Assembly: GCA_965209055.1 (NCBI GenBank)
Contig: OZ242374.1
Coordinates: forward strand, 1,024,001 to 1,088,000
Length of the DNA stretch: 64,000 bases
Reading direction: 5' to 3'
DNA from: Acidobacteriota bacterium
Lineage (GTDB): Bacteria > Acidobacteriota > UBA6911 > RPQK01 > JAJDTT01
The notes under the pieces are model-generated. The model made no database searches. It worked only from the letters and a program-made list of their open reading frames with translations, and was not told the DNA's origin. A program made the translations under genes and the position numbers. Positions within the stretch are counted from its first letter, which is position 1. Each line of letters starts with the position of its first letter. Shown here one piece after another: positions 39,244 to 63,985 of the stretch.

Positions 39244-40566
39244 ATGTTGCCATGCCGAGCGGACGGCCTGGACCGTCGTGACTTCCTGATCGCCACGGCG
39301 GGCCTCGGATCGTCGGCCGGCTCCCTGTTTGCGACCGCACCGAGGCCGCAGGGGCCTCCCGGGCGGAGAAGGACCGGACCCATGAAAATCACCGGATTGA
39401 AGACCTACATGTTCAACGTGCCGACCGGAAGTCCTCCCCCCAGGAAGGGAGTCCGACGGAGCATCGCCAGCACCTTCAAGACCTGGCTGTTCCTGAAGAT
39501 CGAGACCGATACGGAACTCTCAGGCTGGGGCGAGGGGAGCATCGAATGGCTCTCGCCGGTGGTCAGGACGACGCTGGAGGGCTGGCGGGAACTCCTGGTG
39601 GGACAGGATCCGCTCAACGTGGTCGCCCTCTGCGACGACATCTCGGACCGCCTCCCCTGGAAGGGCGGACCGGTCCTGGGTACGGCCCTGGCGGCGGTGA
39701 ACATGGCCCTCTACGACATCGCCGGAAAAGCCTGGGGGGTCCCGGTCTACCAGATCCTGGGCGGCCGGAAGCGGGACCGCATCCGCGTCTACCATGGCGG
39801 CATCAGCTTCGAATCCGTCCAGGAAGCCGTGGCCAAGGCGCGGGCCGCCGTCGCCTCGGGCGTTCGAGGTCTCAAGGGGAACCCTCTGGAGATGCGGACG
39901 TGGCCCATGGACCGGGCTGCCTTGGACGAGTGCGTCCGAATCGTGGCGGCGGTCCGGGAGGAGGTGGGACCGGAGATCGACCTGATGCTGGACACCCACG
40001 GCAGTCCCAATCCGGCCCTGGCCATCGCATTCGCCGAAGCCGTGGCGCCCTACAAGCCGCTCTTCCTGGAGGAGCCTTGCAAGGTCGGGTCCATCGCGGC
40101 GCTCAAGGAGATCTCGGCGCGCAGTCCGGTTCCCATCGCCACCGGGGAAAAATTCTTCTCCTACCGGGAGTTCAAGGAAGTCATCGATGCCCGCGCCTGC
40201 GCGTTCCTCCAGCCCGACCTGAGCCATGCCTTCGGAATCACCCAGTTCCTGGCCGTCTCGCGCCTGGCCGAGGAGGCGCAGATCCTGATGGCGCCCCACA
40301 ACGCGTCGGGACCTGTCCATTTGGCAGCCCTGTTTCAGGCGGACGCCGTCATCTCCAATTTCCTGGTCCAGGAAGCCTGGGGATTGGAGCGGATGGACCG
40401 GTACGTGGAGCACGACCTCACCCTGACAGACGGCCACGTCCGGCTCAGCGACCGGCCCGGGCTGGGGATCCGGGTCAAGGAAGCGGACATCGCCAAGCTC
40501 CGCTATGACGCCGACATGTCCTACCGCCAGTACCGCCATGCCGACGGCAGTTGGAAGGGTTGGTAG
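39244..40566 (+). CDS. Mandelate racemase/enolase-superfamily dehydratase (galactonate dehydratase-like) with Tat-like leader
   Basis: DRRDFL leader; GWGE, ALYDIAGK, MLDTHG, FLEEP, ATGEK, QPDL, APHN. Confidence 0.85.
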   Translation: MLPCRADGLDRRDFLIATAGLGSSAGSLFATAPRPQGPPGRRRTGPMKITGLKTYMFNVPTGSPPPRKGVRRSIASTFKTWLFLKIETDTELSGWGEGSIEWLSPVVRTTLEGWRELLVGQDPLNVVALCDDISDRLPWKGGPVLGTALAAVNMALYDIAGKAWGVPVYQILGGRKRDRIRVYHGGISFESVQEAVAKARAAVASGVRGLKGNPLEMRTWPMDRAALDECVRIVAAVREEVGPEIDLMLDTHGSPNPALAIAFAEAVAPYKPLFLEEPCKVGSIAALKEISARSPVPIATGEKFFSYREFKEVIDARACAFLQPDLSHAFGITQFLAVSRLAEEAQILMAPHNASGPVHLAALFQADAVISNFLVQEAWGLERMDRYVEHDLTLTDGHVRLSDRPGLGIRVKEADIAKLRYDADMSYRQYRHADGSWKGW

Positions 40567-40762
40567 GAGGAGCCGCGGTTTTCCTACCGCCGACCAGGGG
40601 GGGTGGGGACGGCAACACACCCATTGAATCCAGAGATATCCCAAGAGATCCCGGAATATATTTTAAGTGGTTGTTTTTCTTTAGTTTAGACCTGTTCTCA
40701 CCCCGTTTCTTCCTCCCCTGACGTCCCTTGATATCCATCTCCATCCCGTTTATTATGGTGTA

Positions 40763-41998
40763 ATGGGTGATGTAATCAGTGCTCCCCTTTTGCCCCGGAA
40801 GACCAAGCCGAAGGGCCGCCACCCCCACAAGGCGCTCTCCGCCGCTTTCGTGCGCTCCGCCCCACCGGGCAAACACTGCGACGGCAACGGACTCTACCTC
40901 TTCGTCAAGCCTAACGGAGCACGAAGCTGGATCCAACGCCTCGTCATCCGCGGCCGCCGCCGCGACTTCGGACTCGGCGGTGTGGCACTGGTGTCCCTGG
41001 CCGAGGCCCGCGAGAAGGCGCGGGCCAACCGCAAGCTGGCCCGCGAAGGTGGGGATCCCCTGACCGAGAGACGCCGCACGCACAACATGCCCACCTTCGC
41101 CGAAGCCGCCGAGCGGGTGGTGGAGCAGAAGCGGTCCGGCTGGCGCAATCAAAGGCAGGCCCACGACTGGATGGCGAGCTTTCGACGCTACGCCTTTCCT
41201 CACATCGGCCGGATGCCGGTCTCGGAGGTGACCAGCGGCGACGTCCTGGAGATCCTCGTGCCCATCTGGCACGTGAAGTCGCGCACGGCCCGGACCGTGC
41301 GTCAGCGCCTCCGCACGGTCCTGGAGTGGGCCGTGGCGATGGAATACCGGACCGACAACCCCTGCGACCGGGTCGTGTCGGTGCTCGGAGCACAGGACGA
41401 CGTGGTGCGGCACATGCCGGCCTTGCCGCATCGCGAGGTGGGGGCGGCCCTCCGGAAGGTGCGGGCCTCCAACGCGATGCCCGTGTCCCTGCTGGCCTTC
41501 GAGTTCCTGGTGCTCACGGCGGCGAGGTGGGGCGAGGTGCGGTGGGCCGAGTGGCTGGAGATCGATCCGGCGCAAGGGATGTGGACGGTTCCCGCAATCC
41601 GCATGAAGACCAAACGGGCGCACCGGGTGCCTTTGTGCCGCCGGGCGAATGAGATCCTGGAGAAGGCACGCACGCTGGATCATGGAGCCACCCGGTTGAT
41701 CTTCGCCCGAAGGGGCGGAAAGCCGCTCGGCTCCGGCCGGTTGCGCAAGCTGCTGCGCCGGAACGGGATCGCCGCCGTGCCGCACGGGTTCCGGTCGAGT
41801 TTCCGGGACTGGGCGGCCGAGGAGACGGATCATCCACGCGAGGTGGTCGAGGCGGCGCTGGCACATGTGGTGAAGAACAAGGTCGAGGCGGCGTACCGGC
41901 GCACGGACCTGTTCGAGCGTCGGCGTCGGCTCATGGAGGACTGGGCGAACTATCTGGCTGGCGAGAGTCCGGAACGGGTGGCCGGCCGGCTCCGTTGA
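40763..41998 (+). CDS. P4-like tyrosine recombinase/integrase with N-terminal arm-binding domain
   Basis: DGNGLYL...SW...GLG..VSLAEAR..DP arm domain; catalytic pattern LTAARWGE, MKTKRAHRVPL, HGFRSSFR, LAH, EAAYRR intact. Confidence 0.95.
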   Translation: MGDVISAPLLPRKTKPKGRHPHKALSAAFVRSAPPGKHCDGNGLYLFVKPNGARSWIQRLVIRGRRRDFGLGGVALVSLAEAREKARANRKLAREGGDPLTERRRTHNMPTFAEAAERVVEQKRSGWRNQRQAHDWMASFRRYAFPHIGRMPVSEVTSGDVLEILVPIWHVKSRTARTVRQRLRTVLEWAVAMEYRTDNPCDRVVSVLGAQDDVVRHMPALPHREVGAALRKVRASNAMPVSLLAFEFLVLTAARWGEVRWAEWLEIDPAQGMWTVPAIRMKTKRAHRVPLCRRANEILEKARTLDHGATRLIFARRGGKPLGSGRLRKLLRRNGIAAVPHGFRSSFRDWAAEETDHPREVVEAALAHVVKNKVEAAYRRTDLFERRRRLMEDWANYLAGESPERVAGRLR

Positions 41999-42192
41999 TC
42001 CGCCGTGGTGGTTCTCCCGGCAGGCTTCGTGATCTGGGGTTCGAGCCGGATTCCGGGAGGTCGATCTTGACCGCTGAAAAGTGGGGTTCCGTGCCGCTCG
42101 GGGAGTGCACCTGAGACAATGGGCGGCATGTGCACCATGAGGGCTCTTCGATGTGCACGGCACCGTTCCTCTAACTTGCTGTCCCCATTCGG

Positions 42193-42362
42193 GTTACGGC
42201 TCGCCTCGCGGCTCGGCGGCACCGCTCGGGGAAAGCGGAGGTGGACGGGAGCGACCCCCCTTTTTTGCCTCCCGGATCGGCAAAGCGGGGCAGGCTGATG
42301 CGCACTGACCGTGCCATCGCCTCGGGGGGTCGCTCCCGTCCCAATGATCCCTGCCGGGAAGG
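42193..42362. repeat. Structured repeat, copy 1
   Basis: CGGGGAAAGCGGAGGTGG, then 18-bp inverted repeat GGACGGGAGCGACCCCCC (42243-42260) / GGGGGGTCGCTCCCGTCC (42324-42341), then ATCCCTGCCGGGAAG. Confidence 0.8.
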
Positions 42363-42817
42363 CCTCTGGATCGCCTGAGCGCGTGGCGGTGCACCACGGA
42401 ACGGCGCGGTGGGCAGGCCGCCGCGTGCCAGTGCTCGTACCAGCGTCTGTGGACGGCCCCGATGGCTGGACGGAGTGATCTGGCGGATCGAACAGGCAAT
42501 CTTCTTCCAGAAATGCGGAGTGTGCTGAAAGGGACGCGGGCCGATTCGACGGCTATGGCAGCGTCAGGGCCTCGCTGAGACCGGCCATCGAGTGGCGACC
42601 AGGGGCGGAAGATCGCGCCGCCGGCGTGGAGATCGACGACGACGTTCGCGACGCTCTCGTGGCGGGCGACACGCTTGCCGGGGAGCTCATTTTGACGGGT
42701 ACAGAGCGCCCCACCGTGTCGATCCGGGAGTGTAAGGGAGACAACGGGGGCAACTTACATCATGGGAGTCTGCCAACTTACACACGCGATTTCCCCGATC
42801 TCTTTGTCGCTCATGCT

Positions 42818-42990
42818 GTTACGGCCATGTTTTCGGCTCCGCCGTGCCCGCACGGGGAAAGCGGAGGTGGAAGGGAGCGACCCCCCCTTTTTCCTGCCCG
42901 GTGCGGGCGCGGGGGTGTGGCGCAACTTACATCTGCGCCACACCCCCTGGGGGGGTCGCTCCCTTCCAAAATATCCCTGCGGGAAGCCCC
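42818..42990. repeat. Structured repeat, copy 2
   Basis: Same flanks; 20-bp inverted repeat 42868-42887 / 42949-42968 enclosing a perfect 14-bp hairpin (42911-42947) with loop ACTTACATC. Confidence 0.8.
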
Positions 42991-43763
42991 CGGAGAAGAA
43001 TCCGGAAGACCTGTTAGGGCTCTGCCAAGCCTCCATCCTCGACACGCGGTGCAGGATCCAGGCATGACCACAGGCGACACGTGCCACTGGGGTCCGCAGG
43101 TGCAGGTGGATCTTCGGCGTCCTCTTGGACGAGGAGTTGGACCGAACCCCGGAAGGTCTGAACTCGGAACGGCAGGCGGAGGTTCGCGTCGGGGTCCGCT
43201 CCAGGCCCAGCCCCCGATCCAGGGCCTGGCCGACGAGGCGGCCGGTGCGGGTGGTGGTGGTCCGGCCGTCGAGAGCCAGCTCCACGCCGTGGTGGCACCG
43301 GAGCAAGCGGCGGTCGAAGCGCAGGGCGCGGTTTCTCCGGCAACCCGGAACGGATGACGGACCGGGGGAACCGATCCCCCCAGACCCCTCAGTGGCGCCA
43401 GAACCCCTGGCGGCTCACCTTGCCGCCAGTGAACCTGGCGCTTCTGTTCGTCGCGCGTCCCATGAGAATGGGACCCTCACGCGGTCTCCTCGGCCTTCCA
43501 GCCGGGAGTGAGACGTTCGCCCGTTTCCGGCAGTCCTGGCCAATCGGACCCGGTCAGCTCCGAATGTCCGCCCCCAATTCCCGGAGCGCGCAGGCGCTTG
43601 AAACCTGGGAGTCGAGGCGAGAAACTCGTCCATGGAGTCCACGGACCTCCAATAGGGTCGAATGGAATCCCGTTCAGAAGGTGGGATGTAATGATGTAAC
43701 CTGCTCGGGAGAATAGATCATAACTCTATTATTATCAGATACTTAAGAGATCTTTTCCGTAGA

Positions 43764-43849
43764 GGGGACGGCAGTCCCCCCTTTACGCTTTCCAACCGCC
43801 GAATTGCCCAACAACACGCAAAGATGGGCGATTAGGAAATCGCCCCTCC
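43764..43849. repeat. Right-hand part of the interrupted REP-like element
   Basis: GGGGACGGCAGTCCCCCC...TTCCAACCGCCG...GGGCGATTAGGAAATCGCCCCTCC; the left part is GTAGGAGGAGCCGCGGTTTTCCTACCGCCG at 40563-40592. Confidence 0.65.
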
Positions 43850-43888
43850 ATCCCATGGAATTATTCGCCGCGTCGTTATCAGATAGAC

Positions 43889-44992
43889 ATGAACCAGGAA
43901 TCCCGTCTCTGGCTCGCCCTGTCCCGCGTCCCCGGGATGCCCGCCCGCATCACCCGGTCCCTGATCAAGGGGGAGCGGCCGTTGTCATCTTTCTTCGGCT
44001 TGTCCAGAAAATCCCTCCAGAGCCTCCGGCTGCCTGAGAAATCCATCGGCGCCATCGTCGGCGGGTCCGCGCTCCGGACGGCCGACCGGGAAATCCGCCG
44101 GCTTCCGCGGCTGGGGCTGCAGTTGGTGACCCTGGACAGCCCCCGCTACCCTCGACTCCTCCGCCAGATTCACGATCCGCCTCCCGTCCTTTACTGTGCC
44201 GGGCGGATCGAGACCCTGTCCGGACCCTCGGTGGCTTTGGTGGGATCCCGCCGGCCCACCGTCTACGGAAAGGAGGTCAGCCGCAAGCTGGCCCGGGAAC
44301 TCTCCGCGCTGGGACTCTGCGTGGTGAGCGGACTGGCCCGCGGCGTCGATTCCCAGGCCCATTGGGGAGCCCTGCAGGCGGAAGGCGGGACCGTCGGGGT
44401 CCTGGGTTGCGGCATCGACGTGGTCTACCCCCCGGAAAACGGGGAGTTGTTTCGCCGGGTGCGGAAACAGGGTTGCCTGGTCAGCGAGTTTCCCCGCGGC
44501 AGCCCCCCGGCGCGCCACCGCTTTCCGGCCCGCAACCGGATCATCAGTGGACTGGCTCACGGGACCATCGTCACCCAGGCGGCCAAGGGGTCCGGTTCAA
44601 TCATCACCGCGAACCTCGCCCTGGAACAGGGACGGGACGTCTGGGCGGTGCCGGGAGCCATCACCCTGTCCCTGAGCTGGGGTCCCAACTGGTTGATCCA
44701 ACAGGGGGCCAAGGCGGTCCTTTCGGTCCAGGACGTGTTGGAGGAGCTTCCCCCCTCCGTACTGGGACGGCTCGAGGAAAAGAACGCCCAAGCCTCGCCG
44801 GCGCCCCGGCCCACCGCTCGGGAAGAGGCGGTGCTCGACTTGCTGGCCGTCGATTCGACGCTCCATATCGACGCCATCCTGACCCAATCGGGTCTGGACC
44901 TTTCCGGGCTCAGCGACATCCTTCTGAGTCTGGAAATCAAGGGCCTGATCCGCCAGAGTCCGGGCCGCCAGTACAGCCGGCGCCTGTCTTGA
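43889..44992 (+). CDS. dprA: DNA processing protein DprA
   Basis: YPRLLRQIHDPP, VGSR, VSGLARGVD, FPARNRIISGL, SGSIITA; C-terminal winged helix. Confidence 0.95.
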   Translation: MNQESRLWLALSRVPGMPARITRSLIKGERPLSSFFGLSRKSLQSLRLPEKSIGAIVGGSALRTADREIRRLPRLGLQLVTLDSPRYPRLLRQIHDPPPVLYCAGRIETLSGPSVALVGSRRPTVYGKEVSRKLARELSALGLCVVSGLARGVDSQAHWGALQAEGGTVGVLGCGIDVVYPPENGELFRRVRKQGCLVSEFPRGSPPARHRFPARNRIISGLAHGTIVTQAAKGSGSIITANLALEQGRDVWAVPGAITLSLSWGPNWLIQQGAKAVLSVQDVLEELPPSVLGRLEEKNAQASPAPRPTAREEAVLDLLAVDSTLHIDAILTQSGLDLSGLSDILLSLEIKGLIRQSPGRQYSRRLS

Positions 44993-50626: not shown

Positions 50627-50784
50627 CAGCCCGTGGCAAAAGTCGTCACGGCATTCGACCGTCCCTGCATCCCGGCGGACTGCGTTGCGATTCGGGCACA
50701 TACTCCTGGTATGCACCCGAATCGCGCCTTGTCCGGCGGGCGCAGGAACGGTCTCGGTGCTCGCGAGACTTTCGCCACGGACTG
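50627..50784. mobile_element. MITE-like element, copy 1
   Basis: TIRs CAGCCCGTGGCAAAAGTC / GACTTTCGCCACGGACTG, flanked by CTGA/TTGA, starting at the cobA stop; near-identical to 56535-56693. Confidence 0.8.
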
Positions 50785-56534: not shown

Positions 56535-56693
56535 CAGCCCGTGGTAAAAGTCGTCACGGCATTCGACCGTCCCTGCACAGGCGCTGACTGTGTTGCGCCT
56601 CGGTCACATCTGGTCGAATATGCTCCCTCGTCGCGCCCTGTCCGGCGGGCGCAGGAACGGTCTCGGTGCTCGCGGGACTTTCACCACGGACTG
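56535..56693. mobile_element. MITE-like element, copy 2, between nuoC and nuoD
   Basis: TIRs CAGCCCGTGGTAAAAGTC / GACTTTCACCACGGACTG with TTGA on both sides (4-bp duplication containing the nuoC stop). Confidence 0.82.
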
Positions 56694-63875: not shown

Positions 63876-63985
63876 CGGCGACATGGAGCGGCGACATGGA
63901 GCGGCGACATCCCTGTCGCCGAGGGGGGGTTAGGGGGGACGCAGTCCCCCCTGTACACTTCCTCTCCCCCCTCCCAAACCGCCGT
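63876..63985. repeat. REP-like composite element (uninterrupted analogue of the integrase target)
   Basis: (CGGCGACATGGAG)x2, CGGCGACATCCCTGTCGCCG, G-run, GGGGGGAC-GCA-GTCCCCCC (63933-63951), CCCAAACCGCCG. Confidence 0.7.

Follow-up and report, generated by a model that had tools for sequence, protein, structure and literature searches.

Analysis of a 64,000-nucleotide stretch of an Acidobacteriota chromosome (genome positions 1,024,001-1,088,000, hereafter the window) revealed a 3.16-kb integrative element, E1 (window 40615-43773), the P4-like tyrosine integrase of which very probably uses as its bacterial attachment site (attB) the second hairpin of a repetitive extragenic palindrome (REP)-like unit that occurs in the genome in about 60 copies. 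The source genome (G000) is a single contig of 6.08 Mb with 62.8% G+C, and its nearest public relatives are, by record titles and run labels, Acidobacteriota genomes from sponge and reef metagenomes. Other copies of the element in this genome are designated E2-E5 (integrases 91-100% identical) and E6 (an 81% copy); sister genomes carry the numbers G001, G002, G003, G004, G006, G008 and so on, with G008 being the closest. The integrase and four cargo open reading frames (ORFs) were compared with Pfam, genes for tRNA and transfer-messenger RNA (tmRNA) were called with ARAGORN, and tblastn, blastn and nhmmer were used for integrase paralogues, DNA copies and a profile of the unit, respectively. 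The comparison set from sister species comprised 10 elements, seven with an integrase at least 86% identical and three with one 81-83% identical, and relatives were collected at 80 loci in other genomes (integrases 68-92% identical).

As proposed in an initial annotation of this DNA, the 10-mer GGGGACGGCA is present at 40605-40614 and again at 43764-43773, with a start-to-start distance of 3159, and the two copies bracket the integrase gene and 1.76 kb of cargo. Direct-repeat families of at least 10 nt number 38 in the same 3.6 kb, so that a 10-nt direct repeat by itself is not beyond chance; the significance of this one derives from the recurrence of the same hairpin split in all five close copies and in four elements of sister genomes. 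The left half of the split REP-like unit (40569-40604; nhmmer match at genome 1064569-1064622) consists of hairpin 1 (40569-40592) and a G-run (40593-40604) and lies directly 3' of the stop codon (40564-40566) of an enolase-superfamily gene. It is followed by the first core copy (left attachment site, attL; 40605-40614, forward strand), which represents the 5' arm and loop of hairpin 2, and short-read unitigs from three runs start or branch precisely at 40605. The second core copy (right attachment site, attR; 43764-43773, forward strand), at the first base of which unitigs of two runs start, is continued by the right half of the unit (43774-43795; nhmmer match at genome 1067759-1067795), comprising the 3' arm of hairpin 2, GTCCCCCC, and then TTTACGCTTTCC. 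From the core on, this right half and its flank are 92% identical to those of the uninterrupted unit 5' of dprA in G008. The joined flanks of E1 also reproduce the layout of an uninterrupted unit within the window, as the initial annotation had it for an element at 63898-63985; the unit, mapped at 63896-63963 (forward strand) by sequence and nhmmer, is an unoccupied relative of the target with a 3-nt loop.

Between the cores, E1 has the organization of a lambda-like integrative element. The integrase-proximal P' arm (40615-40762, forward strand) is an AT-richer segment of 148 nt that is conserved in E1-E5 and in the sister elements, unlike the sequence to the left of it, which differs between loci. 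Repeated in this arm, and recurring in the other one, are AGAGATC-like and GATGTAA-like motifs, which are candidate arm-type sites. The distal P arm (43640-43763, forward strand), ending in TTCCGTAGA, is conserved throughout E1-E6 and also in a single decayed solo end. The intact integrase gene (40763-41998, forward strand) codes for 411 aa with the P4-like three-domain architecture, Arm-DNA-bind_3 (PF13356, 6.9e-18), Phage_int_M (PF22022, 4.6e-25) and Phage_integrase (PF00589, 1.6e-12), all exceeding their cut-offs; the NCBIfam model PRK09692 gave 139.4 bits and fell short of its cut-off of 434. Candidates for the catalytic residues R..H-x-x-R..Y are the segments TAARWGE, HGFRSSFRDW and AAYRR of the translation. 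This tyrosine recombinase is the sole E1 protein with a family match; no DDE/DEDD transposase with terminal repeats or a guide RNA was found, and the contents of E1 include the integrase and att sites and no relaxase or mating-pore genes. An Rfam search of window 40000-44500 (E <= 1) returned only a chance microRNA match.

The target belongs to an abundant repeat family. Hairpin 2 of the unit, GGGGGGAC-GGCA-GTCCCCCC, is a perfect 8+4+8 palindrome, and the exact 16-nt hairpin GGGGACGGCAGTCCCC occurs 12 times in the genome, five times at element right ends and seven times uninterrupted. The nhmmer profile of the whole composite unit yielded 73 matches, representing 10 half-sites of five elements and 63 other units, and hairpin-1-like motifs occur 262 times genome-wide. 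Short GC-rich extragenic palindromes in at least 100 copies, often forming composite arrays, characterize REP sequences and bacterial interspersed mosaic elements (BIMEs), and the family has these properties, with tandem hairpin-1 arrays and positions directly 3' of stop codons among its copies. As candidates for a cognate RAYT (Y1 transposase) gene, the genome has two weak PF01797 matches (30.8 and 23.6 bits). A separate palindrome family, GGGGACATTCCTGTCCCC and its variants, counts 68 copies with a 6-nt loop (e.g., genome 37268, 352340 and 1645365) and very often has TAGGAGG directly 5', that is, the palindrome begins at a stop codon.

Searches for paralogues of the integrase revealed 16 full-length genes, six of them 81-100% and ten 63-65% identical, plus four at about 30%. 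All five elements with 91-100% identical integrases (E1-E5) split the unit in the loop of hairpin 2, and in one orientation: the integrase-proximal junction reads unit-left ... GGGGACGGCA | ACAC..CCATTGAATCC and the distal one ..CGT(A/G)(G/T)(A/T) | GGGGACGGCA | GTCCCCCC-T.TACGCTT. The element ends are conserved among these copies, and the flanking hairpin-1 variants and genes vary by locus. Identity to E1 reaches 98.4% over 3,239 nt in E2 and 98.0% over 2,426 nt in E3, both of which are set in unrelated flanks, and the integrase frames are open and stop-free in all six close copies. E4 (L112, genome 801700-818300) extends over 16.4 kb, has a run of about 26 G at its left junction and carries a defence cluster with a Dcm-type cytosine methylase, Vsr, HATPase_c_3, Z1, DUF4420 and a split AIPR gene; the cargo of E3 includes a split trypsin-like gene. 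The left flank of E5 is also the left flank of an element in G008.

The same mode of insertion was observed in sister species. Four of the seven sister elements with integrases at least 86% identical (two in G008, one each in G001 and G006; integrases 86-92% identical) are canonical, that is, they interrupt the same hairpin in the same orientation, and one of the G008 copies occupies the site orthologous to that of E3. The cores of these canonical elements track the local loop variants GGCA, GTCA and GACA. Furthermore, uninterrupted REP units were seen at orthologous positions in sister genomes, namely those of the enolase-superfamily gene, dprA and E3. In G001 and G002 the two flanks of the E3 site adjoin each other, and G004 holds an uninterrupted unit there. 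Directly 3' of the enolase-superfamily gene, an uninterrupted composite unit is present in four of eight sister genomes.

The surroundings of E1 itself bear the trace of a large rearrangement. The enolase-side unit of the sisters precedes a gene found in the source genome at 1,729,466-1,730,969 and not dprA, while dprA is preceded in all five sisters examined by DNA found in the source genome at 1,730,870-1,732,275; in those five genomes the enolase-superfamily gene and dprA lie about 500-590 kb apart on one strand. An uninterrupted unit at 1,730,868-1,730,940 of the source genome combines the dprA-side left half with the enolase-side right half, and E1 stands between the enolase-side left half and the dprA-side right half, its unit being thus a hybrid of two ancestral units. 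The presence of reciprocal hybrid halves at both units confines the exchange point to hairpin 2. In G008 both ancestral units are uninterrupted and the dprA-side one carries the exact hairpin. The reciprocal exchange may have been the integrase's own reaction between attR and a distant attB, or recombination between repeats may have preceded the insertion. Because the enolase-superfamily gene and dprA were not ancestral neighbours, an empty enolase-dprA site cannot exist in any sister genome, and the initial annotation's expectation of such a site falls with the derived nature of this adjacency.

Integrases of other subgroups occupy other dispersed sequences, following the same principle. E6 (81%; L114, genome 2675500-2679750) is flanked by CCCTGCGG, and its site has two uninterrupted paralogues (genome 4990561 and 3750250), one of them just 3' of a Y1-transposase-like (PF01797) gene; the three sister elements with 81-83% identical integrases use the same CCCTGCGG site, one of them in reverse orientation. 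On the left side of five paralogues of about 64% identity lies a 120-nt piece of a 175-nt structured repeat, which is dispersed, strongly self-complementary and present in about 25-30 genomic copies, including 50665-50784 and 56583-56693 of the window (reverse strand, by sequence match). Four of these five islands terminate in a right junction located 8.7-16 kb downstream, both ends bearing AGTCCGCCGGG, at which the 175-nt repeat is split; the fifth is joined to the repeat in reverse orientation. Five further paralogues with the left junction CCTTCCCGCA.GG were considered as insertions into the 3' motif of a hairpin module (described below), a candidate that was rejected, as their supposed right junctions proved to be uninterrupted modules with the usual downstream sequence. 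Two elements of this subgroup face each other 9 kb apart (genome 1599043-1610650), each with its own hairpin module, and are possibly nested. Integrases 68-77% identical are multi-copy in Gemmatimonadota, Candidatus Versatilivorator and other metagenome-assembled genomes (loci L031-L110), with at least 11 integrase loci in each of two such genomes, many of the genomes stemming from sponges or corals by title, which suggests exchange across phyla within the sponge and coral habitat. In a Candidatus Versatilivorator genome a 15-nt GC-rich sequence is common to the left junctions of seven of 11 copies. An automatic search for flanking direct repeats at the 80 related loci was too noisy for cores of 8-10 nt.

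The integrases of this clade are not associated with tRNA genes. ARAGORN called no tRNA or tmRNA gene in the 64-kb window, in line with the earlier statement that neither junction of E1 coincides with a tRNA. Relative to the 69 tRNA and tmRNA genes of the genome, the 16 paralogues of the clade lie 1.3-145 kb from the nearest call, with none tRNA-adjacent, and the nearest call (1.3 kb) falls within a copy of the hairpin module; a tRNA within 1.3 kb upstream is likewise absent from all 80 relatives in other genomes. The four P4-like integrases of about 30% identity are situated 160-169 nt from tRNA-Ala, tRNA-Phe, tRNA-Ile and tmRNA, respectively, and serve as a positive control, demonstrating that the classical arrangement exists and is detectable in the same genome. 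Thus no use of tRNA or tmRNA 3' ends as attB, as in the classical arrangement, is found in this clade. The alternative offered by the initial annotation, an ordinary tRNA-targeting P4-type integrase caught at a secondary site resembling the 3' end of tRNA-Glu, is scarcely credible under these counts. It draws on the stem of hairpin 2 (GGGGAC/GTCCCC), which tRNA-Glu(TTC) of this genome, with the 3' end CCCGTTGGGGACGTC, has as its acceptor stem too, and a historical link of the hairpin to tRNA-Glu is possible. Among the tRNAs, however, the best match to the 19-nt right junction covers 12 of 19 positions, which 57 of 690 random segments equal or exceed.

Three other explanations compete with the use of hairpin 2 as a duplex attB. 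Recognition of the same target by another chemistry, in which the integrase reads an extruded or single-stranded hairpin, would parallel integron integrases, tyrosine recombinases that act at many imperfectly conserved palindromes (attC) per genome. The perfect 8+4+8 palindrome would suit such a reaction, conjugative arrival would present single strands, and inverted repeats contain or adjoin each of the three target classes (hairpin 2, the 175-nt repeat and the CCCTGCGG site); on the element side, however, the site is not palindromic, no sign of integron architecture is present, and the arm-binding domain and two long, AT-rich att arms are typical of duplex, lambda-like synapses, which makes this mechanism unlikely. 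It is improbable, too, that the element itself carries or generates hairpin 2, for instance as a self-spreading miniature derivative of its ends, which would render the argument for targeting circular. A resemblance between the left end of the element (CAACAC.CCC) and the reverse complement of the G-run region of the unit, at which two decayed sister copies are joined, points in that direction, as does the absence of the unit from the E2 site of sister genomes (see below). Against it stand 63 unit matches outside elements versus five elements, the uninterrupted units at the orthologous enolase, dprA and E3 positions of element-free sister sites, the variation of unit halves by locus with constant element ends, and the established fact that conservative tyrosine recombination leaves no footprint. 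Finally, the copies could have arisen by segmental duplication and repeat-mediated homologous recombination with the integrase as an inactive passenger. E4 and E5 have both flanks in common, and the hybrid nature of the unit occupied by E1 indicates that recombination at these repeats occurs; nevertheless, E1, E2 and E3 combine unrelated flanks with at least 98% identity, all integrase frames are open, and the junctions are base-precise in every copy and in three other species, so that this history is highly improbable and the integrase is presumably an active enzyme.

Several observations weigh against the use of hairpin 2 as attB. The two flanks of E4 match those of E5 (96% over 1.7 kb and 98% over at least 8 kb); as these elements lie in a segmental duplication, the five copies amount to four distinct loci, and one of the two may have been copied by the duplication. 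At the E2 site the hairpin-2 unit is absent in four of four sister genomes, and the target there cannot therefore be shown to be older than the element, which is the chief finding that lends the proposal no help. Not all junctions of homologues fall on the GGGGAC-N4-GTCCCC hairpin as had been predicted: the prediction held for all five copies in the source genome and for four sister elements, and failed for two of the seven closer sister copies (one with a stop codon, one truncated), which abut an inverted unit just outside the hairpin, for one that lies in a GGGACG look-alike at the base of a hairpin-module stem, and for the 81-83% subgroup. Pfam gave no match for the four cargo ORFs of E1, and no excisionase candidate was found among them. 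In the contigs of three public DNA runs neither an excised circle nor an empty allele was detected; joined forms in these contigs extend just 25 nt to a side and are attributable to other unit copies and not to excision at E1, and among the joints listed for them none that goes back has the length of E1. With these points taken into account, the recurrence of the junctions, the uninterrupted sister units and the counts of none of 16 paralogues and none of 80 relatives beside a tRNA support the earlier proposal of recombination by the integrase at a hairpin within a multi-copy intergenic repeat, with many sites open to it.

With regard to the segmental duplication, it spans at least 10 kb (genome 173000-190000 and 791300-822300) and holds E5 and E4, respectively, at the same site with different contents. 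Collapsed strain variation in this region is conceivable in view of a contamination estimate of 7.4% for the source genome.

On the basis of the established behaviour of lambda-like integrases, strand exchange at the REP-like unit would take place inside the 10 bp common to element and target (GGGGACGGCA), within an overlap of 6-8 bp. The G-run and C-run arms of the palindrome would function as the two core-type binding sites, and the AT-richer arms at 40615-40762 and 43640-43763 would provide arm-type sites for the N-terminal arm-binding domain. A dispersed target frees the element from the limit of a single site in each genome, and it is indeed found at at least four loci in the source genome and at more in sister species, with a single orientation in the canonical copies.

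The cargo of E1 is not neutral filler and carries a conserved hairpin module that is common to a conjugative cluster. Two such modules of about 280 nt are present, each with three short iterated motifs and an 18-20-bp perfect stem that encloses inner hairpins and is followed by ATCCCTGC. The type 1 module (42084-42364, forward strand) contains three GTGCAC (~42100-42160) and an 18-bp perfect stem (42243-42260/42324-42341), then ATCCCTGCC; the type 2 module (42716-42995, forward strand; z = -5.55) contains CAACTTACA motifs and a 20-bp perfect stem (42868-42887/42949-42968) with an inner 14-bp hairpin, then ATCCCTGCG. The E1 type 1 module is 78% identical to genome 1832114-1832393, which immediately precedes the coupling-protein gene of a type IV secretion system (T4SS) cluster with genes for ArdC, VirB8, VirB6, VirB10, VirB9, a VirB4-like ATPase and a primase, and the same adjacency of module and coupling protein was found in G003 and beside three coupling-protein remnants. 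The module occurs in 61 copies in the source genome and in eight of eight genomes of the genus, with none in the six other genera searched, and its stem is near-invariant across 53 distinct copies, with a few compensatory pairs. In each of the three local subgroups the module comes after the integrase gene, and its DNA is 84-91% identical across subgroups whose integrase genes are 72-74% identical by DNA. In one of the 61 copies ARAGORN placed an 85-nt tRNA-Val (genome 3841235-3841319), which is probably a false call.

The chances appear about even that this module is an origin of transfer (oriT) borrowed from resident conjugative elements. The motif after the module stem resembles the nick region of RP4-type origins, ATCCTG. 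A leader or regulatory role fits the position of the module equally well, and no relaxase of the MOBP (PF03432) or MOBQ (PF03389) type was found in the genome, both of which speak against a transfer origin. The multiplication of the element would need more than conservative recombination, and module-borne transfer into cells already holding a copy would supply it; on the oriT reading, E1 would be a minimal integrase-plus-oriT hitcher.

A wider proposal covering the whole clade can be offered only tentatively, and we regard it as possible and somewhat less than probable. According to it, the P4-like integrase clade as a whole would have left tRNA genes, with the subgroups each exploiting a dispersed structured repeat of their own as a many-copy attB. 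Equipped in addition with a borrowed transfer origin, these site-specific islands would behave like transposons and multiply within a chromosome. They would stack defence cargo at repeats and insert into each other's hairpin modules, and they would catalyse large rearrangements, such as the exchange of units about 500 kb apart, which would be an attR x attB reaction of the E1 integrase with breakpoints in the 20-bp hairpin where E1 now resides.

Compared with known systems, the element shares with islands of the P4/CP4-57 type the three-domain integrase, a gene placed about 150 nt inside one end, a short block of identity at both junctions and AT-richer arms, as well as the defence cluster in larger copies of the family. 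It differs from them in that it targets a dispersed repeat instead of a single-copy tRNA or tmRNA gene at its 3' end, in that several copies coexist per genome, and in the miss of PRK09692 (139 versus 434 bits). Insertion sequences (IS) known to target REPs include IS1397, ISKpn1, IS621, ISPpu9, ISPpu10 and ISPsy8, and PMC1525189 lists the families IS3, IS110, IS4, IS256 and IS5. The likeness lies in the use of REP palindromes as many-copy, presumably neutral landing sites with a fixed position and orientation. These insertion sequences rely on DDE/DEDD transposases, with a guide RNA in the case of IS110, whereas the element described here depends on att arms and a lambda-like tyrosine recombinase and is able to carry 14 kb of cargo. 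A tyrosine integrase among REP-targeting elements is not mentioned in the available part of PMC1525189, and a literature search, confined to partial texts, found no tyrosine integrase with a REP attB, although supplementary files might hold cases. Relaxase-less integrative elements termed iOriT have already been described from six nosocomial species (bioRxiv 10.64898/2026.01.13.699239). Like those, E1 has an integrase, att sites and a candidate oriT without relaxase or mating-pore genes; in E1 the module is common only to the resident conjugative cluster. Unlike in iOriT elements, the oriT here is a candidate predicted from sequence, in a genome where no PF03432 or PF03389 relaxase was found.

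Integrases of the lambda and P4 type are regarded as acting at a single site, so that an island is restricted to one copy per genome and bound to conserved genes. An integrase reading a repeat with dozens of copies would lift this restriction and explain the multiplication of islands within one chromosome. The repeats would thereby gain a role as landing pads for defence islands, and the integrase would be an enzyme able to join distant repeats and so to reshuffle the genome. Such elements would also offer an account of the heavy mobile-element load in sponge symbionts, and they may provide a natural multi-site integration system for GC-rich bacteria.

The remaining part of the E1 cargo (43173-43604, forward strand) consists of decayed fragments of other mobile elements, as suggested by blastn, neighbour clustering and translation. 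Positions 43173-43344 match DNA beside three tRNA-type integrase islands, and 43337-43524 together with 43532-43604 match the leader and first codons of an Xer-like tyrosine recombinase gene with about 11 genomic copies, the NCBIfam Xer-like matches of which are below cut-off. A second mobile family (L118, genome 2973900-2976500, and about 10 other loci) was also observed, composed of a hairpin module, a small ORF with a RAYRCPxCG motif and an Xer-like recombinase of about 360 aa; one of its copies is located 110 nt from the right end of E2.

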